Of a DNA stretch of 64,000 nt, positions 10,966-25,838 are shown in pieces. This DNA is from Escherichia phage vB_EcoM-Ro121c4YLVW. The notes beneath the pieces are model-generated. The model made no database searches. It had not been told where the DNA came from and saw only the letters and a list, made by a program, of their open reading frames with translations. Numbering within the stretch: position 1 is the first letter of the stretch; the number at the start of each line of letters is the position of its first letter. The stretch lies in the sequence record NC_052654.1, one strand, 5' to 3'. A program made the position numbers and the translations under genes.

Positions 10966-11210
10966 TCGACGAGCTTGCCTCTCAAGTCGTAGAAAATTAT
11001 TGGCGCGAGAGAGAAGCTTTCATTATGCGCAGTCTCAAAGAGTATTTCATTGGGACTGTGCGAATGGAAGATATTGTAAGTAGAGTAGAGATTCATGTAT
11101 GGCCCGATTATGAAGAATGGGTTGACAAAGAAAATGAAAATGCTATAATTCTTCGTATATACAAACCGGAGATAACATTAGGAGGAAGAAGTGTTAAACT
11201 TCGAAATTGA
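10962..11210 (+). CDS. hypothetical small protein
   Basis: ATG overlaps the vWA stop; contains an internal promoter-like site. Confidence 0.4.
   Translation: MIDELASQVVENYWREREAFIMRSLKEYFIGTVRMEDIVSRVEIHVWPDYEEWVDKENENAIILRIYKPEITLGGRSVKLRN
11122..11149 (+). promoter_or_regulatory. sigma70-like promoter candidate (TTGACA, 16 nt, TATAAT)
   Basis: Consensus -35 and perfect -10 hexamer, upstream of the paralog B and TerD genes. Confidence 0.5.
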
Positions 11211-11475: not shown

Positions 11476-12078
11476 ATGACTGATAAAATTTCCCTGAAAA
11501 AAGGCTCTAGCGAAAAAATTTCCCTGAAGAAAGTTGCTCCGGCTCTGAAAGAACTGCGCCTGGAATTCTCTTGGAAATCTGATTCTAAACTGGATCTGGA
11601 TGTAAGTGCACTGGTTTGTCGTCATAATGCCGCTGGCAATCCTGAAATGCTGTCCGCACGTCATCTGGTTTGCTATGCTAACAAGTTTGATCCTGAACGT
11701 TCTACCTTCGCTGGTGACGATGTTCGTGATGGGACTGGCAGCATGGAGCAGATTGATATTACTCTGGCTAAAATCTCTCCTGATGCACAAGAGATTGCCT
11801 TTGTTCTGACCATTGATGATGATACAGGTCTGAAACGTTTTGGTCATGCTTCTGAAGGTATGCTTAAAATCTTCGACTCCGAGCGTAATGTGGAAATTCT
11901 GGATTTTGACTTCCTGGCTCCTGAAGTAGCTGGCAACACAATCTGCCACGTGGCTTCCCTGGTTCGTGAAGATGGAGAATGGAAGCTGAAAGCATATGGT
12001 GTAGGTAAAGCTGGTCTGGATATTTGCGATGTGGTGATGGCCTTCGGTGGTAAAAAAGAATGGTATGAATGTCCATAA
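11476..12078 (+). CDS. terD: TerD-domain protein
   Basis: Matches recalled TerD signatures: N-terminal ISLKK repeats, DLDVSALVC, GDDVRDGTGSMEQIDITL, IAFVLTIDDD, DGEWKLKAYGVGKAGL. Codon usage is strongly E. coli-optimal (CTG, CGT, GGT). Confidence 0.9.
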   Translation: MTDKISLKKGSSEKISLKKVAPALKELRLEFSWKSDSKLDLDVSALVCRHNAAGNPEMLSARHLVCYANKFDPERSTFAGDDVRDGTGSMEQIDITLAKISPDAQEIAFVLTIDDDTGLKRFGHASEGMLKIFDSERNVEILDFDFLAPEVAGNTICHVASLVREDGEWKLKAYGVGKAGLDICDVVMAFGGKKEWYECP

Positions 12079-13972: not shown

Positions 13973-14656
13973 ATGGAAAATATTAAAATCGGAGTGGGTG
14001 TTATCACTGTAGGTGTCCGTCCACTTAAAGACTATCTTGTAACAGATCCACATGCAGATTTTCGAGTATTCAACGATCCAGATCGTAAAGGTGTAGCTTA
14101 CGCCAGGAATGAACTTATGCACCAGTTTTATGAAGAAGGTTATGATTATTGGTTTATTTTTGACGACGATTGCTACCCAATCATGGAGGGATGGGAAACA
14201 TATTTTGTAGATCAAGCTGTCTCTGGAAGATGGGATTTCTTTGGTATGCCGGAGTATTTCAAAGATAAAGTTGTTGGGAGTAAAGGAGAAGTTATTCTCT
14301 GGGAACTTGCAATGTGTCAATTTGCAATGTATTCTCGTGCCGTTGTTGAGAAGATGGGTTATTTCCGCCCTTACACTCACGGCTATGGTTTTGAAGATGC
14401 TGAATGGGTACACCGTTTGAAAGCTGCTGGTTTGAATCAGGGTATTCAGGCAATACCTTGTCCACTTCGTATCATGGCTTATATCCACCCAGACGATGTT
14501 TTTGGAAACAATCCTATGCCTTTTGCTAATCTGACAAAAGAAGAGAAAGAAGCTGCTATTGGCATTAACTGGGAAGAATATAAAGCGTCTTTAGAAGATA
14601 TTAAAAATGGGAAAATCCGAATTTCTTATGAGGAGGCACTGGCACATGTCAAATAA
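13973..14656 (+). CDS. glycosyltransferase, GT-A fold (family 2-like)
   Basis: DxD motif FIFDDDCYP and downstream GFEDAEW; RBS AGGAGAG. Confidence 0.65.
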   Translation: MENIKIGVGVITVGVRPLKDYLVTDPHADFRVFNDPDRKGVAYARNELMHQFYEEGYDYWFIFDDDCYPIMEGWETYFVDQAVSGRWDFFGMPEYFKDKVVGSKGEVILWELAMCQFAMYSRAVVEKMGYFRPYTHGYGFEDAEWVHRLKAAGLNQGIQAIPCPLRIMAYIHPDDVFGNNPMPFANLTKEEKEAAIGINWEEYKASLEDIKNGKIRISYEEALAHVK

Positions 14657-15593
14657 AAAATGGACTAAACTGAAAATTGATGCAAAACCTCACAGTGGTT
14701 GTGATTATCATCGTATTGTTATACCATTTAACAACAATAATTTTCAGCCTAAGAAAGATGTTGTCGTGTTTAACCGTATTCATTCTAAAGGTGCAGAATA
14801 CGTTTTATCTTTGAAACGTCAAGGTGTTAAGATTGTTGTAGATTTAGATGATTTCTACCAACTTAATCCAGAACATTATTTAGCAAGTCTATACGAGTCA
14901 AACACTCATGCTATTGTAGCTATGGTTAAGCTTGCTGATGTGGTTATTGTGACTACGGAATATTTAGCATATAAGATCCGTCACTTAAATAGGAATGTTG
15001 TTGTGATCCGAAATGCACTTCCTTTTGATAGCGGACAATTCACTTTGTCAAATGATCGTTCATCCGGTACCCCTGTTGTATGGGCTGGCGGTGCTAGTCA
15101 CGAACCAGACTTACGACTAGTCTCTAATACTTTCGATGATGAACTTCTTACTATTGCGGGATATGAAGCATCACAAAGCATCACGGGACAAGAGTGGATT
15201 AAGATTCGCAGAAATTTACCAAATGCCAAATATAAAGCCGCCGTAAAAGATTTAGATAATTACATGAGTGTTTACGAAAGTCATGCTATTGCTATAGCTC
15301 CTTTGGTAGATAATGATTTTAATAATTGTAAAAGTAATCTCAAAATCCTGGAAGCTGGAGCAAAAGGTATTCCGATTGTTTGTTCTAAGGTATTACCTTA
15401 TTTTAACCCTGTAGATGCTCGCGCTGTTGCTTACGCAGAGAATAAAGCAGAATGGCATTACGAAATTGTTAAGCTTCTTCGCAATCCAAACTATCGGGAA
15501 GATCGTGGCTTGTTCTTGGCTGAACATGTTCGAACACATTATAATCTGGCAGATGCAAACGAGTTGCGACGCCAGGTTATTGAAAGTTTGTAG
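14646..15593 (+). CDS. glycosyltransferase, GT-B fold (GT4-like), paralog 1
   Basis: C-terminal KSNLKILEAGAKGIPIVCS resembles the GT-B E-x7-E region; ATG 14646 follows AGGAGG; paralogous to the next gene. Confidence 0.65.
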   Translation: MSNKKWTKLKIDAKPHSGCDYHRIVIPFNNNNFQPKKDVVVFNRIHSKGAEYVLSLKRQGVKIVVDLDDFYQLNPEHYLASLYESNTHAIVAMVKLADVVIVTTEYLAYKIRHLNRNVVVIRNALPFDSGQFTLSNDRSSGTPVVWAGGASHEPDLRLVSNTFDDELLTIAGYEASQSITGQEWIKIRRNLPNAKYKAAVKDLDNYMSVYESHAIAIAPLVDNDFNNCKSNLKILEAGAKGIPIVCSKVLPYFNPVDARAVAYAENKAEWHYEIVKLLRNPNYREDRGLFLAEHVRTHYNLADANELRRQVIESL

Positions 15594-15600
15594 GTGAAGT

Positions 15601-16545
15601 ATGGGACAAATAATTCTTGACAATCGTAACGGAATCAATTATAGTGTCTGCGATTTCCATAGGGTAGTGCTGCCTTACTCAAGGCAGTTCTCTTCACAAC
15701 CTAAACACAACGTTTTCGTTTTTAACGGAGTGCCAACAAAAGGTAAAGAGGGCTTTTTAGCCCTTAAAAACCTGGGCTTTAAAATGGTTATGGATTTGGA
15801 TGACTCTTTAGTTATTCCAAAAGGACACATGTTAGAAGGTATTTTTGAATCAGGTATTCGTGAACATTTAAAATGGTTTTTAGAGCACAGTGATCTTGTT
15901 ACAACTACGACACCTGCCTTGCAAGTTGAACTTTCACAATACAATGATAATGTGCACATAATCCCTAATGGACTTCCTTATGATGAAGGTCAATTTGTGT
16001 TGACCCGTGATCGCTACTCCAAAACTCCATTAGTCTGGGCTGGAAGTGAAACACATAAACAAGATTTGGCTATCTTGCCCGATTTTGGTAAAGATCTTAC
16101 AATATGTGGTTTTCGTAGGGATTCTGAAGTTTTAAGTAGTCGTGAATGGTCTGTAATTAGAGAAAATGTAGCACCAACTAGTGTTTATGAAGGTGTAAGA
16201 CCATATGCCAACTACATGGAATCTTACGATGGTCATCAAATCAGTCTTGCACCATTGGTCGATAACGTGTTTAATAATGCAAAAAGCAATCTTAAAATTC
16301 TTGAGGCAGGTGCTAAGGGTTTACCTTTAATCTGCTCTCCTCGTGAGAATTATCATACGCAAGAGTTTAAAGATTTGTTATTCTTTGCTGAAACACTTTC
16401 CGAGTGGAAAGATATTACGGAATACTTATTAAGTGCTCCCGATGTTTGCATGGAGAAAGGATTAGCATTAGCTAAGTATGTCAGGACTCATTATCACATT
16501 GATGTGTTGAATGAGCGTCGTAGACTTTTATTTGAGGAGCTATAA
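15601..16545 (+). CDS. glycosyltransferase, GT-B fold (GT4-like), paralog 2
   Basis: KSNLKILEAGAKGLPLICS and overall co-linear similarity to 14646..15593. Confidence 0.65.
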   Translation: MGQIILDNRNGINYSVCDFHRVVLPYSRQFSSQPKHNVFVFNGVPTKGKEGFLALKNLGFKMVMDLDDSLVIPKGHMLEGIFESGIREHLKWFLEHSDLVTTTTPALQVELSQYNDNVHIIPNGLPYDEGQFVLTRDRYSKTPLVWAGSETHKQDLAILPDFGKDLTICGFRRDSEVLSSREWSVIRENVAPTSVYEGVRPYANYMESYDGHQISLAPLVDNVFNNAKSNLKILEAGAKGLPLICSPRENYHTQEFKDLLFFAETLSEWKDITEYLLSAPDVCMEKGLALAKYVRTHYHIDVLNERRRLLFEEL

Positions 16546-16835: not shown

Positions 16836-18614
16836 GTGTCGCACATTATAACTAAATATGGATTTGATGTTGATCTTAGCAAGGAAGGGCATACAGGTTG
16901 TCCGCGCTGCATGAAAAATGGCAAGGATCGCTCTCGTAATAACCTGATGGTTTATGGATTAGATTCTAATGGAGAGCATAAAGGTGCTAAGTGCTTTGCG
17001 TGTGAATACACTATTCCTAGCGTAGAATGGTTACGAGAAAATGGTGAAGTTTTAGAAGAAGAGGAGGAGATTGTGGGTTCGGAATTTAATAAACAGATTC
17101 ATCGTAAAATTGTTCAAGAAACATCAACCAACCCACGTGGTTATCGAGGCATTAAAGAAAAAGTTTCATCTTTCTATGGTGTTCGTTATGAATACCGTCA
17201 GGAAGGGGATCAGATGGTAGTAGAAAGTTGTTTATATCCGACTACCATCGGTAAAGAATTGGTTGGTTTTAAGCGTCGTATTCATCCTAAAGATTTCAGT
17301 AAACCTATTGGTCAAGTAGGTAAAGATGTAGATCTTTTTGGACAAATTCGTTTTGCAGACCGTTCTCATACTGTGGTAATTACAGGTGGTGAACACGATG
17401 CTCTGGCAGCTTATCAAATGCTGTCTGAAAACTTGGACAACAAATATGAACTTCCAGCAGTAGTTAGTGGCACAACTGGTGAAACCAGTATGTATAAACA
17501 AGTTCAGGCACAATATCCTTTCTTTGAAAAATTTAAGAAGATTATTGTTTGCATGGATAATGACAAAGCAGGTAATGAGGCATTTGAAAATATTGTTAAG
17601 GTGCTACCTCGTAACAAAGTCTACCGTATGCAGATGGATCTTAAGGATGCCAATCAGTATCTGGAAGAAGGTCGTGCAAAGGATTTCGTAAAGGCTTTTT
17701 GGAGTGCTCGTCTATACACCCCAGCAGGTGTTTATGCTTCTAATGTCTTGTATGAAGCTGCATTAGAATGCTTGGAATCCAAGATGATTACCTTGCCTCC
17801 TTTTATGCGTGTTGCTGCAAATATGCTGGGTGGTGGTTTAGTAGAGGAAGAGATTACAGTCATCCTAGCAAAGACCAGTATCGGTAAAACTTTGATGGTG
17901 AACGAGATCACCAAACATATTATTGTTGCGCACCCAGAACATACCCTAGGTATTCTGTCATTGGAAGCAACTTATAAGAAATATTCTCGTAACCTGTTGT
18001 CCTCGTTCCTGCATATTCCTCTACATAGGAAAACACCGGAAGAGAAATTTCAAATCTTGGAAGAGAATAAAGAAAAAATCCTAGATTTTTACGAAAGAGA
18101 AGATGGATCACCACGTTTTTATGTGTGTGATGATCGTGGAGCAGATGTGGAGTCTATCAAAGAAAAAGTTTTGGAGATGATCATCTATTTTGGAGTAACA
18201 ATTCTTGTTATCGACCCTTATTCTGATTTGCTTTCTGGTATGGATGTTCAAGCCCAAGAAGAGTTAGCAACATGGTTGAAGCGTATCATGAAAGAGTATG
18301 CTATAACTATTATCGTCATCTCACACGTTAAGAAATCGGCTAATGGTGGCAATGAACACTTAACAGAGGACGATGCAATGGGTAGTAGTTTCTTGGCTAA
18401 AGGTGCTGGTATTACCTTGGCTTTGGAACGAGATAAAGCCGCTGAAGACCCTGTAGAACGCAATACGACTCATTGCTTTATCCTAAAAAACCGTGAGTTC
18501 TCGGAGACTGGTCCGGCAGGGCAGTTTTACTATGACATTAGAACTGCAACTCTGCATGACAAAGAGCAGTATTTCAACAACCCTGCTAATTTGCCTACGG
18601 ATAGCAACTATTAA
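16836..18614 (+). CDS. bifunctional DNA primase-helicase (T7 gp4-like)
   Basis: N-terminal Zn ribbon CPRC...CFAC; TOPRIM-like VVITGGEHDA...CMDNDKAGNEA; helicase Walker A AKTSIGKT and Walker B-like VLVIDPYSD. Confidence 0.9.
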   Translation: MSHIITKYGFDVDLSKEGHTGCPRCMKNGKDRSRNNLMVYGLDSNGEHKGAKCFACEYTIPSVEWLRENGEVLEEEEEIVGSEFNKQIHRKIVQETSTNPRGYRGIKEKVSSFYGVRYEYRQEGDQMVVESCLYPTTIGKELVGFKRRIHPKDFSKPIGQVGKDVDLFGQIRFADRSHTVVITGGEHDALAAYQMLSENLDNKYELPAVVSGTTGETSMYKQVQAQYPFFEKFKKIIVCMDNDKAGNEAFENIVKVLPRNKVYRMQMDLKDANQYLEEGRAKDFVKAFWSARLYTPAGVYASNVLYEAALECLESKMITLPPFMRVAANMLGGGLVEEEITVILAKTSIGKTLMVNEITKHIIVAHPEHTLGILSLEATYKKYSRNLLSSFLHIPLHRKTPEEKFQILEENKEKILDFYEREDGSPRFYVCDDRGADVESIKEKVLEMIIYFGVTILVIDPYSDLLSGMDVQAQEELATWLKRIMKEYAITIIVISHVKKSANGGNEHLTEDDAMGSSFLAKGAGITLALERDKAAEDPVERNTTHCFILKNREFSETGPAGQFYYDIRTATLHDKEQYFNNPANLPTDSNY

Positions 18615-18634
18615 GGGCTTCGGCCCTTTTATTA
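18613..18634 (+). terminator. rho-independent terminator after the primase-helicase gene
   Basis: AAGGGC-TTCG-GCCCTT followed by TTATT. Confidence 0.75.
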
Positions 18635-18644
18635 AAAATACCTG

Positions 18645-18673
18645 TTGACAACTTTGCGGAAGGGACTTATACT
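18645..18673 (+). promoter_or_regulatory. strong sigma70-like promoter candidate (TTGACA, 17 nt, TATACT)
   Basis: Near-consensus -35 and -10 hexamers in intergenic DNA just upstream of the gene at 18707. Confidence 0.6.
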
Positions 18674-18706
18674 TGTCTCATCAACCAAACAAGAGGAGAA
18701 GTAAAA

Positions 18707-19138
18707 ATGCGTATGACAATCGATTTGAATGCAAAAGTTAAAGCTGCTGGTGCTCTGGGTGCTGGTGTTATTAAACACAAACAAGCGTTGGCATTTGCCA
18801 TCCCACATATGATTGTTGAGGATCATCCTGAAGAGTTTGCTGTAAAAGTTGTTGAGAACAATGTTTCTGTTATTGAACATATCCCAACTGGACGTTCTTA
18901 CCGTGTTGTTTCTTCTAAAGGTTTCCGTTTCGATGTAAGCCCTTCTTTCACAAAAGGTGCTGGTCGTAGTAAAGTGGGTATTCTTTCTTACAAATATTAT
19001 ATCGATAAAGTTGCAGATGGTGTTGCATTCTGTCGTGTAAGTGAAGGTAAAGTAGATATCATCTTTAAAAATACTAAAAACATGGTTATTTCTGATGATG
19101 GTAAAGTTGACCTCACTATTGAGTTCGCTAACAACTAA
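18707..19138 (+). CDS. hypothetical protein, probably highly expressed
   Basis: Strong RBS AGAGGAGAAG; codon usage biased to GGT, CGT, GTT, CTG like the capsid and SSB genes; no recognisable domain. Confidence 0.6.
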   Translation: MRMTIDLNAKVKAAGALGAGVIKHKQALAFAIPHMIVEDHPEEFAVKVVENNVSVIEHIPTGRSYRVVSSKGFRFDVSPSFTKGAGRSKVGILSYKYYIDKVADGVAFCRVSEGKVDIIFKNTKNMVISDDGKVDLTIEFANN

Positions 19139-19147
19139 GGAGGACTA

Positions 19148-19942
19148 TTGAGCAAGTTGAACACACTTGATCAATATTACACTAACCCCGCTTATGCGGG
19201 GTTCTTATGTGATAAGATCAAAGAAATTTTTGGAGAGGAAGCTAACTACGTAGAACCATCTGCGGGAGAAGGAGCTTTCTCTTCTTGTTTTAAAAACATA
19301 ACTTCTTTTGATATTGACCCTAAGTTTGAAGATTGTATTGAGGCAGATTTTTTAGCTCAATCTGTTGAGTCTGTTGGTAGCGTAACTGCTTTTGTCGGTA
19401 ATCCTCCATTTGGAAAAAATGCTAGTCTTGCCATTAAATTCTTTAACCATTGTGCTGAAATGCTGGATAACGAAGGTGGTATTTGTTTTATCTTGCCTCG
19501 CACATTTCAAAAAATCTTTTTTGCACACAAACTAAATCCCCATATGCATCTTCTTTACGAAGAAGAATGTCCAAAAGGATCTTTTATTCTTCATGGAGAA
19601 CCTTGGGATGTTCCTTGTGTATTCCAGGTATGGATTAAACGCAACGAGAAGCGTTCTCCCGTTGTTTTAGGAGAGAATCGACTATTCGTATTAGGTAACA
19701 GTAAAGACTACGATATAGCTGTTAGGAGAGCGGGAGCAAGTGCAGGTAGAGTGTTATCAGAAGAAGATTCTTTATCTGAAGCATCTACCTATTTTTTAAA
19801 AGCCTTGACTTCTGATCTTAAAACGCGTATCATTGAGGCTTACCCGTTACTTAAAGCTGAAGCTAGTAAAACTGCGGGAGTAAGAAGTTTAAGTTTAAAA
19901 GAACTTCAGTGGGTTCTGGAGAACATTAGAAAGGAGGAATAG
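19148..19942 (+). CDS. N6-adenine DNA methyltransferase (orphan; gamma-class motif order)
   Basis: Motif I EPSAGEGAF precedes motif IV GNPPFG; TTG start after AAGGAGG. No restriction endonuclease gene is adjacent. Confidence 0.75.
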   Translation: MSKLNTLDQYYTNPAYAGFLCDKIKEIFGEEANYVEPSAGEGAFSSCFKNITSFDIDPKFEDCIEADFLAQSVESVGSVTAFVGNPPFGKNASLAIKFFNHCAEMLDNEGGICFILPRTFQKIFFAHKLNPHMHLLYEEECPKGSFILHGEPWDVPCVFQVWIKRNEKRSPVVLGENRLFVLGNSKDYDIAVRRAGASAGRVLSEEDSLSEASTYFLKALTSDLKTRIIEAYPLLKAEASKTAGVRSLSLKELQWVLENIRKEE

Positions 19943-22900
19943 TGAGTAAGTTTACATGGGATATTGAAGCAAACGGATTGTTGAATAATGACACTATTGA
20001 TTATTTAGCTAGTCCTTATCGTCTCAAAGACACATTTCAAATGCACTGTATTGTCTTAGAGAACCATGAAACAGGAGAAATAGTAGCTTTCCACGATGGC
20101 CCTAAATACATCTTTGATGGGCGTCCTTATGAAGAGTCAGATGGTAAATACACATATGTTCTTAAAGAGTATGTGGCGCAAGATTACACACATTTTCAAC
20201 TAAAAGATTTCCCAGACTTTATTAATCATGAAGGTTATTTTAAAGATAAGCCTGAATATCTGGTTGAAATGGCTGTGGCTCACAACGGTATCAACTACGA
20301 CTGGTTGGCTACAAAACTGTTTTATGGATTAGATTACAGTGTTAAATATAATACGTGGGGCAAAAATAAGGTAAAACTTATTGACTCCTTGATTTTGAGT
20401 AAAGTGTTAAACCCAGATCGAAAGATTGAGGGCAAATCAGGACATAGCTTGGCAGCACTTTCTCGAAAAGCAGGTGGTGATGTAAAAATAGATTTCCGTA
20501 AAGAGATTCCAGAAGAAGATCGATTTAAGACTTTTGCTGCGGATATGCTTTATTACTGTATCTATGACAACAAAGCCAATACGAGCGTATATAATTACCT
20601 TATGGAAGAATGGGGCGATTATGATAAATGGGAAGGTCCATTTGAACTTGAACAACGTGTAGCAGACATTATTACACGCCAGGAACACCGTGGGTTTGCT
20701 TTTAACATGAAGCAAGCAGAAGAGAACCTTGCTTTTTTGGATGCAGAAATGGAGCGTCTTCGTTTACTCGTTGAGCCTATTTTGCCACCTAAACCAGCAA
20801 CAAAAGGTTATCTTAAGGCTTTTATTCCACCTAAGTTGCAAATTAAAAAGAACTTAGAGCCAACTAACCATATGATCAATTTTGCTAAGAAACATGATGG
20901 TCATTTGGAAGAGAGGGATGGCGATTGGTGGTTAGTTATGTTGGGGAAAGAGTGGAAACTGCCAGTTGCAGCAGATGAGCCTCTATGTGATCCTAACATC
21001 CCTGCAACATTGAACGATACAACCCATATTAAAAACTGGCTCGTAGGATTAGGTTGGGTACCGTCTGAATATAAAGATAAAGACTTGACGCTTAAATCTG
21101 GCACCAAAATTAAAAAGAGCGAGGAAGAACTTCAGAAAGGTATTAGAGCTTACGTTGAGCAAACTCTATCTTCTAATTTTTGTCAGGATCGTTGTGATCA
21201 TCTGGAGTGCACACCGGAAACTTTGGAAAGGAAGATTCAAGAGCGTATAGCAAAAGGTAAAGGTCGCGGTCTTAAAGTATTGACTAACCCATGTTTTACC
21301 AAAGGTCAGGAAAAAGAAATTTGTCCTAACCTGCAAGCTTTGGGTGAGAAATTTCCTTATGCTACACAGATTGTAGAATACTTAACGTATAAGCATCGTA
21401 GGAACTCTATTTTAGGTGGCGGTGCTGATTGGGAAGAAGATGAAGAAGATCAAGAATACGATAAAGGTTTCTTAGCCGCAGTAAGGGCGGATGGGCGTAT
21501 TCCTACACCAGCCGCTACATGTGATGCTGCAACCTCTCGTATGAAACATAGATCTGTAGCTAATATTCCTCGTGTCACATCTTTGTTTGGATGGGAGATG
21601 CGTAACTTGTTTGGTGTAGAAGTTCCTAAATACTTCCAGATCGGTTATGACTTCGACTCTTTGGAAGCAAAGATTGAGTCGCATTACTGTGTGCCGATGG
21701 ATGCTCAAGCTTTGACTCGTAAAGGTTGGGTAGGATATCACGACCTGAAGGAAGGGGATGAGATTTTAGGGTACAATGCTGAAACAGGTATGAAAGAATG
21801 GACTAAAGTAAAAGGTAAGGTCTTCTATAAAAATAGTAAGACGTTTGAGATTAAAGGGAAATCACACACTTACCGTGCAACAGCAGATCACCGTTGGTAT
21901 GTTAATACCCGTAGTAAAGGGAATACTTATGTGCCTAAAGTCAGAACAACTGCCGAGCTTTGCACAGGAGATAATATTATTTGTAATGCTCCATTTAACA
22001 TGGAACAAGATCAGGTAAATAGTTTAACTTCTGTTCAACAAGGTAAATGGGATGTTCCGTGGGTAGAGCGTGTAGTTAATATGTCTCATGCCGAGCGTGT
22101 AGCTTTCTTGGAAGGTTTCTTGATTGCAGATGGTTACTGGCATGAACATAAACAAAAACCTGTTTGGCGTTGGGCGCAGAACCCAGGTGAACTTTTTGAA
22201 GCAGCTTTAACTGCCTCGTACCTGGTGCATGGAGGCAATATCTCTGTAGCTTTCAATACAAAAGAGCAGAAAGTAAAAGTGGCAACATTGACTAACCGCT
22301 CTCACATTCCTGTTCAAAGTTTGACTATTGAAGAGTGGGGTGTAGAGGATGTTTGGTGTCCACAAACAGAACTTGGTACGTGGGTCATGCGTCAGAAAGA
22401 CTGCATTACCATCACAGGAAACTGTTGGCGCTACGAACCGGAGCCTCATGAATACTGTAACGCTCTCTTGTTAGAGAAGCCTAACGATGTTCATACCATG
22501 ATGGCAAAACGTATTACAGATACTATTGGGCGTAAATTTGAACGTAGTCCGGCGAAATCTGTTAAATACGGGATCACTTATGGTGCACAAGCAGACAAGG
22601 TTGCTAAAACAATTGGTAGCGATAAATACACAGGGCAACTGGTGTTCGATGCTTTCTGGGAAGCTGCATTCCCACTGGCGCGTCTTAAAGAACGTTTAAA
22701 CGATTTCTGGGTTAAGACTGGTAAACAGTATGTTTTGGGTATTGACGGTCGTAAGGTTCCTACTCGTTCTGCTCACGCGATTCTTAACTCTCTGTTCCAA
22801 AGTGGTGGGGTTATCTGTGCTAAACGTGCAATGGTTATTTATGACGACATGATCGAAGAAGAAGGGCTAAGTGTTGACTTCTTTAAAGATGACTGGAAGA

Positions 22901-23274
22901 ATAAAGACTTCGTGCAACAAATGATTGCATATCACGATGAAGCCCAGCTTGAAGTTTCTCGTAACCTTGTAGAATTTAAATGGTTTTCACCTGAATCATT
23001 AGGTTGGAAGAAAGTAGACGATCCTGAAGAACAAAAGAAAATTGATAAAGAATGCCTTGCTAAAGTTGAAGAATGGAAACATAATAAGGAAAAAGAGACA
23101 GGGCAAATTTGGGCTAACATTCATGAATCTCCCAAAGGTGGATGGTTTACAGCCTATAGTCGGGCAGGTGAACTTGCTGCTTTAGCTGTTACTAAGGCTG
23201 GAGAATTTTACAATCTTAATGTTCAGCTTACTGCCGGATATGATGTGGGTAACTCCTGGGCGTCCTGTCACTAG
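19942..23274 (+). CDS. family A DNA polymerase with 3'-5' exonuclease domain, interrupted by an intein
   Basis: Exo I motif WDIEANGL; motif A region GYDFDSLEAKIESHY; motif B RSPAKSVKYGITYGA; about 245 extra residues lie between motifs A and B. Confidence 0.9.
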   Translation: MSKFTWDIEANGLLNNDTIDYLASPYRLKDTFQMHCIVLENHETGEIVAFHDGPKYIFDGRPYEESDGKYTYVLKEYVAQDYTHFQLKDFPDFINHEGYFKDKPEYLVEMAVAHNGINYDWLATKLFYGLDYSVKYNTWGKNKVKLIDSLILSKVLNPDRKIEGKSGHSLAALSRKAGGDVKIDFRKEIPEEDRFKTFAADMLYYCIYDNKANTSVYNYLMEEWGDYDKWEGPFELEQRVADIITRQEHRGFAFNMKQAEENLAFLDAEMERLRLLVEPILPPKPATKGYLKAFIPPKLQIKKNLEPTNHMINFAKKHDGHLEERDGDWWLVMLGKEWKLPVAADEPLCDPNIPATLNDTTHIKNWLVGLGWVPSEYKDKDLTLKSGTKIKKSEEELQKGIRAYVEQTLSSNFCQDRCDHLECTPETLERKIQERIAKGKGRGLKVLTNPCFTKGQEKEICPNLQALGEKFPYATQIVEYLTYKHRRNSILGGGADWEEDEEDQEYDKGFLAAVRADGRIPTPAATCDAATSRMKHRSVANIPRVTSLFGWEMRNLFGVEVPKYFQIGYDFDSLEAKIESHYCVPMDAQALTRKGWVGYHDLKEGDEILGYNAETGMKEWTKVKGKVFYKNSKTFEIKGKSHTYRATADHRWYVNTRSKGNTYVPKVRTTAELCTGDNIICNAPFNMEQDQVNSLTSVQQGKWDVPWVERVVNMSHAERVAFLEGFLIADGYWHEHKQKPVWRWAQNPGELFEAALTASYLVHGGNISVAFNTKEQKVKVATLTNRSHIPVQSLTIEEWGVEDVWCPQTELGTWVMRQKDCITITGNCWRYEPEPHEYCNALLLEKPNDVHTMMAKRITDTIGRKFERSPAKSVKYGITYGAQADKVAKTIGSDKYTGQLVFDAFWEAAFPLARLKERLNDFWVKTGKQYVLGIDGRKVPTRSAHAILNSLFQSGGVICAKRAMVIYDDMIEEEGLSVDFFKDDWKNKDFVQQMIAYHDEAQLEVSRNLVEFKWFSPESLGWKKVDDPEEQKKIDKECLAKVEEWKHNKEKETGQIWANIHESPKGGWFTAYSRAGELAALAVTKAGEFYNLNVQLTAGYDVGNSWASCH
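21688..22422 (+). mobile_element. intein (Hint domain with LAGLIDADG-like segment) inside the DNA polymerase gene
   Basis: Starts with Cys (CVPMDA, block A-like), TADH block B-like, LEGFLIADGYW endonuclease-like motif, ends ...ITITGN followed by +1 Cys. Flanking extein resumes in the T7-like GDIHT-equivalent region (NDVHT). Confidence 0.7.
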
Positions 23275-24950: not shown

Positions 24951-25838
24951 ATGTCCGTAATTAATACTGAAACTGATCGTAAAGGCAAAACCGTAACTTA
25001 TGCAACTGGTATCGTAGACTACGTTAAACTGGATAAATTCGCTGAACCTAAAACTTTTCATTGGGAAGGAAAAACGATTGTTTCAACTCACCGAGCCTCT
25101 CTTGTTCTGAAAGAGAAAGGTGCTAAACCAGATGAGAAAGGTGTTTGGATTTCTCTTGGTGACATTGAACTGAAAGAAGGTTATGAAAACCTGCAAGTCA
25201 AAGAAGGTGATAATTGGATCACTATTGAAAAAGGTGTAGAAGTAAGTATTGATATTGATCGCGTTGATAATAAAGGCGGTAAAACTTACTACAATACTAA
25301 AAAATCTCGTATTACAGTATTGTCTACCGATGGTGTTCAGAAGTCTAACAAATCTTCTGGTAATAAAGGTTCCAACGATGCTGCTCCTAAGCAGTCCTAT
25401 AAAAAACGTGATACTGTAGGTCTGGAAACTGGTCACGCAGTAAATGGTGCACTGGAACTGATTCGTAATGGTGTTAAAGGCGATGCTTTCGATATCGCTG
25501 GGGTTGTTCAATCTGCAACTGTCACGCTGAAATCTGAAATTGCTGAATCTCGTGGCGTTGATATTAATGATTATGATCTTGGGGCATCTGTTGGTCACGC
25601 TATTCTCAATGCTTGTAAAGACCATACCATTAAGACTGTCTCTGTAGAAGATCTGATTGATTCTGCTCGTAAAGTTCTGGCTCTGTCTGATAAAGTTGCT
25701 GCTGCCATTCGTGGTTCCGCAGAACAGCCTAAGAAAGAAGAGAAGAAAGAAGTTAAGAAACCTGAACCACAACCAGAACCAACTCCAAGTAATCAAGAAG
25801 AACCTCCAATGGACTTCGACGATGATATTCCATTCTGA
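24951..25838 (+). CDS. single-stranded DNA-binding protein
   Basis: Canonical acidic C-terminal tail PPMDFDDDIPF; strong RBS; highly biased (optimal) codon usage. Confidence 0.8.
   Translation: MSVINTETDRKGKTVTYATGIVDYVKLDKFAEPKTFHWEGKTIVSTHRASLVLKEKGAKPDEKGVWISLGDIELKEGYENLQVKEGDNWITIEKGVEVSIDIDRVDNKGGKTYYNTKKSRITVLSTDGVQKSNKSSGNKGSNDAAPKQSYKKRDTVGLETGHAVNGALELIRNGVKGDAFDIAGVVQSATVTLKSEIAESRGVDINDYDLGASVGHAILNACKDHTIKTVSVEDLIDSARKVLALSDKVAAAIRGSAEQPKKEEKKEVKKPEPQPEPTPSNQEEPPMDFDDDIPF

Follow-up and report, generated by a model that had tools for sequence, protein, structure and literature searches.

A putative pseudo-restriction module in Phapecoctavirus and other phages: a restriction endonuclease-like protein without its canonical catalytic residues that may bind unmethylated GTAC

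The known systems closest to the locus described here are the PD-(D/E)xK enzymes, namely the small Type II enzymes NhoI, PvuII and MspI, the homing endonuclease I-Ssp6803I and archaeal Hjc, and the PabI and HpyAXII systems, in which the enzyme acts on GTAC and is accompanied by a gamma-class adenine methyltransferase (MTase), R.PabI itself having a "half-pipe" fold (PMC2588503). A further point of comparison is the engineered, hydrolysis-defective EcoRI(E111Q), a restriction enzyme that, with the catalytic acidic residue neutralised, stays tightly on its site, leaves the DNA uncut and blocks translocating machines. Its use as a standard laboratory protein roadblock on DNA is reported (PMC4742970, PMC6978380). 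The present analysis concerns the gene of a 143-amino-acid (aa) protein in a 64,000-nucleotide stretch of Escherichia phage vB_EcoM-Ro121c4YLVW (sequence record NC_052654.1; this whole stretch is called the window below), a phAPEC8-like Phapecoctavirus of the Stephanstirmvirinae with approximately 99% identity to ESCO37, REC and Mt1B1_P17. The protein is the counterpart of phAPEC8_00189 and matches phrog_9938, a phage family of unknown function, over its full length (E 2e-62, residues 1–138 on profile 1–152/152). Its homologue is labelled "hypothetical protein" in every annotated record among 64 Phapecoctavirus-type carriers, and in the approximately 120 Vequintavirus records with a homologue it is often unannotated or fused with the MTase in the annotation. 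For this protein we propose where it comes from, how it folds, which partner it has and what its DNA target probably is; both phage groups are used in phage therapy. The best explanation of the results is that its ancestor was the endonuclease of a Type II restriction-modification (R-M) system and that the downstream gene encodes the MTase belonging to that system.

The sequence-only reading of the gene had seen no recognisable domain in its product, and searches of Pfam, NCBIfam, PADLOC, PDB sequences and PDB profiles with the protein gave no match. That statement was overturned by the AlphaFold model (predicted local distance difference test score, pLDDT, 89), which has a restriction-endonuclease fold of the PD-(D/E)xK type with an alpha-beta-beta-beta-alpha-beta core, and by the homology to putative bacterial endonucleases detailed below. 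The confident model was obtained from an alignment of 24 sequences, while six close sequences gave a pLDDT of 46. Structure prediction combined with a fold search had been envisaged as the way forward, and the first part delivered the fold, but the Foldseek search against the PDB returned no significant match for the model. Similarity of the phage protein to any solved PD-(D/E)xK enzyme was likewise not detectable at the sequence level, and the predicted fold differs from that of R.PabI.

The homologues are bacterial proteins of approximately 160 aa (L021, L035, L065 and L074; P0030–P0047), encoded just downstream of, and overlapping, members of the same MTase family. They were found by hmmsearch against the open reading frames overlapping the 3′ end of MTase homologues (E 2.5e-8 to 2e-3), and hhalign joined the phage and the bacterial families at 96.1% (E 3.3e-9, 100 columns). 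Both have an invariant P-S-x3-G-x-G-R loop and the same MTase partner. Two of the bacterial homologues matched Pfam DUF6998 (PF22522) below threshold (14–17 bits versus a cutoff of 27), and the phage protein had no match to it. The MTase family occurred at 79 loci in bacterial genomes, where it is followed by interchangeable partners, usually overlapping by 3–19 nt: proteins of approximately 215 aa, approximately 350 aa and approximately 160 aa, or a member of the R.PabI family. Such exchange of partner families behind an MTase is the usual pattern of R-M systems. As far as sequences can tell, the phage locus also has the composition of a Type II system, with an endonuclease-family gene beside an MTase of the matching family whose motifs I and IV appear intact. 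A 690-aa repeat protein retrieved by the exhaustive homologue search (P0014) was judged spurious, and the sequence of the homologue P0011 looks frameshifted. In the literature, the coverage of which was incomplete, no paper was found on the small-protein family, the gene pairing or the GTAC bias described below.

The active site was compared in 32 non-redundant phage-type and 17 bacterial sequences. The canonical signature, consisting of a helix Glu, an Asp at beta-2 and (E/D)xK at beta-3, was present in 17/17 bacterial and 0/32 phage proteins. Position 33 is E in all 17 bacterial sequences and P in 32/32 phage sequences; position 55 is D in the former (17/17) and hydrophobic, never acidic, in the latter; position 66 is E/D in 17/17 and K/R in 31/31, respectively; and position 68, K/R in each bacterial protein, is hydrophobic and never K/R in the phages. 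The local alignment is unambiguous (bacterial GKRYEVKCL versus phage GKRYKVVCS). Unlike the PD-(D/E)xK enzymes, the phage members are thus devoid of any E, D or (D/E)xK catalytic residue, and, unlike the bacterial family, they carry invariant P33, K/R66 and K83, of which K83 and K/R66 are invariant only in phage-type proteins and P33 was likewise gained there. The loop (PSxTKGxGR, residues 79–87 of the 143-aa protein) was retained, and its residues S80, G84 and R87 do not vary in either group. These replacements argue against endonucleolytic cutting by canonical catalysis. The small gene is nevertheless under purifying selection and not decaying, as the ratio of nonsynonymous to synonymous substitution rates (dN/dS) was 0.10 at a dS of 0.92 (0.09 for the MTase) and the replaced positions P33 and K/R66 are strictly conserved among the phage sequences.

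The main rival explanation, which we regard as unlikely but deserving the most serious attention, assumes that the protein is still an active GTAC enzyme (endonuclease, nickase or glycosylase/lyase) with a non-canonical active site. Together with the MTase it would form a working phage-borne R-M system destroying host or competitor DNA, and lineages losing the methylase would survive without GTAC. Active-site migration is known in PD-(D/E)xK enzymes, the R-M-like gene pairing is conserved, and the invariance of K83 and K/R66 could be read in the same way. However, all four catalytic positions were replaced in 32/32 proteins, including a charge reversal from E to K/R and a change of D to a hydrophobic residue. 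Migration of an acidic residue in a still active restriction enzyme was also weighed and rejected, since each candidate is variable: E38 is E/D in 27/32 sequences and position 50 in 24/32, position 58 is D/H/N/G, and D76 varies as well. With every acidic position of the phage family open to change, a metal-dependent site is unlikely. S80, G84 and R87 do not suggest a new catalytic centre, since the canonical bacterial proteins keep them just as strictly. Nuclease-dead paralogues such as ERCC1, Eme1, Sen15 and Sen54 (Sen15 and Sen54 being structural subunits of the tRNA-splicing endonuclease) partner an active paralogue, but none was found here: neither the window nor the related loci scanned with the hidden Markov model (HMM) of the family contained one. 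The protein also differs from the DNA mimics Ocr and ArdA, which are strongly acidic, as it is basic (20 K+R versus 16 D+E, isoelectric point 9.2) with a nuclease-like fold.

The downstream gene starts with TTG behind AAGGAGG. Its product matched the PADLOC model MTase_II PDLC03255 ("Type II methyltransferase") over nearly the full length (E 1e-35) and contains motifs X (DQYYTNP), I (VEPSAGEGAF) and IV (GNPPFG). Among eight diverse MTases of the family, motifs I (xEPSAGxG) and IV (GNPPFG) were essentially invariant, while motif X (DxYYT) was present in seven, the eighth being N-terminally shorter. The profile of the family matched M.TaqI weakly (E 0.008). Like the PabI and HpyAXII systems, the phage locus combines a gamma-class, M.TaqI-like adenine MTase with a small partner, and GTAC is the site that the phages avoid; in the phage MTase, specificity for this site is predicted from sequence. 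The small gene has an MTase homologue (36–58% identity) as its immediate neighbour in Phapecoctavirus, Klebsiella phage 05F01, rV5-like Vequintavirus, Vibrio phage IBT_VpB-34 and eight metagenomic lineages, so the pair is adjacent in approximately 12 phage lineages as well as in bacterial loci. In Vequintavirus the order is reversed, with a 38-nt overlap. Two Stephanstirmvirinae-like lineages (contigs L005, L006 and L007, and contig L106) have the small gene and no methylase in the 11–12 kb examined per contig. Genes in the neighbouring slot (112 aa in L005, 116 aa in L106, 131 aa in phage outra and 105 aa in Klebsiella phage KP2025) matched neither the small-protein nor the MTase HMM.

This linkage bears on another reading, to which we give little probability, in which the small protein serves the MTase as accessory subunit or as regulator (acting on its specificity, activation or expression), or else a DNA-binding protein of the replication module whose adjacency to the MTase is historical. 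The tight adjacency or overlap with the MTase gene and the position in Stephanstirmvirinae, between the primase-helicase and the DNA polymerase genes, speak for this reading. On the other side, the gene was kept in two lineages where no methylase was found, and the bacterial MTase family pairs with several unrelated partners and so can do without this one. In Vequintavirus and the Vibrio phage, moreover, the two genes are found away from the replication module, and either version leaves the avoidance of GTAC unexplained. We also considered the small protein as a substrate, with the MTase acting on the K/R loop as a HemK-like protein methylase, and dropped this idea because the MTase is matched from end to end by DNA Type II models and the small gene is kept where no methylase was found.

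Two annotations of the MTase deserve mention. In 05F01 the gene (L011 5419–6192) is annotated with 200 aa, while tblastn gave an uninterrupted match to residues 1–258 of the window MTase that starts right after the small gene, so the annotation shortens the gene. In IBT_VpB-34 the homologue directly downstream of the small gene (L010 5459–6142) is labelled hypothetical and the methyltransferase label sits on an unrelated nearby gene.

The sequence-only reading had predicted an abundant protein from a terminator upstream of the gene, a near-consensus promoter, a strong ribosome-binding site and high-expression codon bias, and all four signals were confirmed and go beyond chance expectation (Table 1). 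The upstream hairpin, whose 5′ end lies within the stop codon of the primase-helicase gene, has a 6-bp stem, a UUCG loop and UUAUU after it (−9.3 kcal/mol, z −2.0 versus shuffles). It was not called by a stringent consensus terminator scan because its T-run is short, and the matching position in phage Schickermooser carries a "terminator" annotation; the hairpin is predicted to insulate the cassette from upstream transcription. The promoter is intergenic, 34 nt 5′ of the ATG. Sites with at least 11 of 12 consensus matches are enriched in the window (10 observed versus 2.7 ± 1.6 in Markov-1 simulations), and promoter-like sites stand at the same position in 05F01 and L005. The identical Shine–Dalgarno sequence AAGAGGAGA is found upstream of the L011 and L005 homologues. 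The codon adaptation index (CAI) of the gene was 0.513 versus a window median of 0.259 (standard deviation 0.087), which ranks it fourth of 75 genes; the CAI, calculated with Sharp–Li weights, is to be taken as a relative measure, and the rank is the robust statement. Its neighbours in the ranking encode the head decoration, major head, TerD-like, single-strand DNA-binding protein (SSB)-like and tail sheath proteins. In other phages the small gene had a CAI of 0.53 (L005) and 0.39 (05F01), and MTase values lay at 0.19–0.26 (0.26 for that of the window, 0.19 at the lower end). We therefore predict that the 143-aa protein is abundant. Codon bias at the level of capsid genes would suit a stoichiometric binder better than an enzyme and would be needless for a regulator. 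A search of the literature, again of incomplete coverage, gave no transcriptome, infected-cell proteome or methylome of these phages mentioning the small gene.

The gene is also bracketed by hairpins on both sides. The second and stronger one (Table 1), which the sequence-only reading had not mentioned, lies inside the methylase gene, and the 41-nt stretch containing it has a folding energy of −16.8 kcal/mol (z −4.6), with 0/200 shuffles as stable. In 05F01 a hairpin of another sequence occupies the same place inside the methylase gene, and in the methylase-less contigs L005 and L106 canonical intrinsic terminators follow directly after the small gene. Since terminators stand here in methylase-less lineages and hairpins of different sequence in the window and 05F01, the arrangement suggests that most transcripts end at this hairpin and the methylase is made by read-through. 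The hairpin may be an attenuator that sets the ratio of the small protein to the methylase, or the 3′ end of the small-gene transcript. In Stephanstirmvirinae the small gene forms a promoter-to-terminator cassette of its own. The situation is different in rV5-like phages (locus L004), where the gene has an ordinary CAI of 0.27 and overlaps the MTase gene. High abundance would thus be a lineage-specific addition to an older protein that was probably already nuclease-dead.

The candidate recognition site was suggested by a partner swap. One bacterial relative of the MTase (L055) is paired with a protein of the R.PabI family, and because PabI and HpyAXII act on GTAC, this sequence was taken as the candidate. 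In the window GTAC occurred 56 times versus 202 expected (observed-to-expected ratio, O/E, 0.28; z −10.3), the lowest of the 16 palindromes, and the depletion was even along its length. Other phages with both genes gave 71/130 (rV5, 40 kb; O/E 0.55, again the lowest of 16), 5/24 (05F01; 0.21), 2/34 (IBT_VpB-34; 0.06) and 12/70 (IMG/VR contig L012; 0.17). The contigs with the small gene and no MTase in 11–12 kb had no GTAC at all (0/48, 0/50 and 0/39 in L005, L006 and L007, and 0/33 in L106; O/E 0.00). Genomes with neither gene were not notably depleted: E. coli K-12 (50 kb) gave 139/155 (O/E 0.90), phages T4, T5 and T7 had O/E values of 0.75, 0.84 and 0.95, KP2025 (42 kb) gave 152/176 (0.86) and outra (136 of 145 kb) 399/510 (0.78). 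When synonymous codons were shuffled within the window genes, 203 ± 11 sites were expected, which rules out codon usage or amino-acid content as the cause; the controls on E. coli, T4, T5, T7, outra and KP2025 rule out host-driven avoidance. Taken together, the shuffle and the controls indicate that GTAC depletion follows the gene and not the host. It was more pronounced in phages whose small gene carries strong signals for expression, and total in the lineages in which no methylase was found. GTAC is thus the candidate recognition sequence of the small protein and of the MTase, and the MTase is probably the cognate modification partner with this specificity.

The absence of GTAC where no methylase was found (0 of 33–50 expected) fits lethal cleavage most simply, which speaks for an active enzyme. 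So does the precedent of non-nuclease chemistry in R.PabI, whose family is specific for GTAC (PMC2588503). The same counts bear on a third rival, which we consider improbable, that the protein is an anti-restriction factor. It would occlude the GTAC sites of the phage or else enter into inactive heterodimers with a GTAC endonuclease of the same family made by the host, and so poison it; the methylase and the avoidance of GTAC would be further, parallel defences against such restriction by the host. Methylase, site avoidance and dead subunit do co-occur in the same phages. However, the stretches with zero GTAC, where there is no site for it to protect, retain the gene with a CAI of 0.53 and under purifying selection. 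Sister phages on E. coli and Klebsiella (outra and KP2025) lack all three features and are not notably GTAC-depleted, so host GTAC restriction does not appear to be a general pressure. Members of the canonical bacterial family came from metagenome-assembled genomes (MAGs), among them Dehalococcoidia and alphaproteobacterial ones, and not from enterobacteria. Finally, the BASEL study reported Vequintavirinae and relatives as "exceptionally susceptible" to R-M systems, which makes a broad anti-restriction function unlikely (PMC8594841). The sequence-only reading had guessed at an anti-defence or host-takeover factor. Host takeover appears to be the right direction, in view of the MTase linkage, the catalytic loss and the GTAC avoidance; the guess was a base-rate argument and the evidence came from elsewhere.

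Some palindromes showed biases of another kind. CTGCAG, CAGCTG, GGATCC and CCATGG (PstI, PvuII, BamHI and NcoI) were absent from the 64 kb where 9–16 of each were expected, which is restriction-site avoidance unrelated to GTAC. Escherichia phage outra (Justusliebigvirus; L100, L110 and L111), which is without the GTAC module, has CATG as its most depleted palindrome (z −8.1, 42 kb) and has a cytosine methyltransferase gene at another locus, possibly a parallel case of avoidance of a different site.

Considering these results, the chances appear about evenly poised that the 143-aa protein is a methylation-sensitive, GTAC-binding pseudo-nuclease aimed at non-self DNA. In such a mechanism the protein would still recognise unmethylated GTAC after the loss of canonical metal-dependent cutting, and Lys/Arg in place of acidic residues should give it a firmer hold on the DNA backbone, making it a stoichiometric binder sensitive to methylation. 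Cognate methylation prevents binding by enzymes of the EcoRI(E111Q) type. Phage DNA would escape by GTm6AC methylation by the partner, by loss of the sites, or by both. The target is probably not the phage's own DNA, because the gene is kept, and highly codon-adapted, in stretches without any GTAC. The GTAC sites of the host chromosome (approximately 12,900 in E. coli, extrapolated from 50 kb) would instead be coated, so that host replication or transcription would be obstructed or the DNA marked for other factors. Saturating thousands of sites would account for a predicted expression as high as this, while methylase levels would be held low by the hairpin within its gene. More tentatively, and with the balance somewhat against it, the phages may carry a domesticated "pseudo-restriction" module, in which an abundant nuclease-dead enzyme clamps every unmethylated GTAC of the host and shuts down or marks its DNA uncut, self being defined by GTm6AC, by the purge of GTAC, or by both. 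The carriers are lytic phages of at least two unrelated subfamilies together with marine and Vibrio phages.

Several points weigh against this interpretation. The conserved loop was poorly modelled (pLDDT <50 at residues 82–86), the bacterial family of putative endonucleases is itself uncharacterised, and the case for GTAC as the target is built on a single partner swap together with site statistics. The total loss of GTAC in methylase-less lineages would also be expected from an active cutter, and the methylase-less status covers just the 11–12 kb of each contig. R.PabI, a GTAC "restriction enzyme", is a DNA glycosylase, an instance of GTAC "restriction" by non-nuclease chemistry, and the phage-specific invariant K83 and K/R66 would fit non-canonical chemistry. 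The argument from stoichiometric coating is, furthermore, limited to Stephanstirmvirinae because of the ordinary CAI and the MTase overlap in rV5-like phages. If the binding model is nevertheless true, viruses can convert R-M modules into non-destructive readers of self and non-self DNA. The protein, a putative binder, would be a natural, anciently fixed and highly expressed viral counterpart of the EcoRI(E111Q) roadblock, which is a laboratory point mutant, and would represent a new route of host takeover. The extreme, lineage-specific GTAC bias would then be explained by the phage's own protein and not by host enzymes. The small protein could also serve as a tool, being a compact, naturally optimised, methylation-sensitive binder of a 4-bp DNA site.

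Table 1. Coordinates of the 143-aa protein gene, its expression signals and other features in the window
Feature	Position	Strand	Remarks
Sigma-70 consensus promoter, TTGACA-16-TATAAT	11122–11149		Perfect, 12/12; upstream of TerD-like gene
TerD-like gene	11476–12078		CAI 0.55, third-highest in window
First of two adjacent paralogues	14607–15593		Approximately 320 aa; upstream of primase-helicase
Second of two adjacent paralogues	15601–16545		Approximately 320 aa; upstream of primase-helicase
T7-type primase-helicase	16836–18614		Upstream of 143-aa gene
Terminator-like hairpin, AAGGGC-UUCG-GCCCUU, with U-rich tail	18613–18633 (hairpin 18613–18628)	+	End of primase-helicase gene
Sigma-70-type promoter, TTGACA-17-TATACT	TTGACA 18645–18650, TATACT 18668–18673	+	11/12 consensus matches
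Shine–Dalgarno sequence, AAGAGGAGA	18691–18699	+	Strong; 7 nt before ATG
143-aa protein gene	18707–19138	+	ATG start; 15.6 kDa
Gamma-class N6-adenine DNA methyltransferase	19148–19942	+	264 aa; downstream of 143-aa gene
GC-rich hairpin, ACCCCGC-UUAU-GCGGGGU (7 bp), then UCUUAU	19185–19202	+	MTase codons 13–19, first 60 nt
Family A DNA polymerase	19942–23274		After methyltransferase gene
295-aa protein gene	24951–25838		CAI 0.49

Some other genes of the window showed features of their own. The DNA polymerase has 1110 aa versus 865 aa in Schickermooser, and its tblastn match is split (residues 1–583 and 828–1110), which reveals an in-frame insertion of approximately 245 aa that is intein-like by position and also present in L019; no Hint domain was detected in the window's polymerase by Pfam. 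The two paralogues upstream of the primase-helicase have weak similarity to glycosyltransferases (RfaB/Glyco_trans_1_2 in relatives) and may be linked to the machinery for DNA or sugar modification that has been suggested in related phages (PMC8594841). Genes for TelA, vWA-TerF-like and TerD proteins are found in related phages in the region corresponding to that of the TerD-like gene. The C-terminus of the 295-aa protein matched a single-strand DNA-binding protein phrog, and the protein is probably the phage SSB, as it is annotated in KP2025. Two records with bacterial names appear to hold phage sequence: a contig with 99% identity to the window's Phapecoctavirus lies within a bacterial MAG (L020; JAEZZU010000159.1, "MAG: Proteobacteria bacterium"), and an rV5-type homologue on a 1.8-kb contig was deposited as a protein of "Escherichia coli O79:H4" (P0018).

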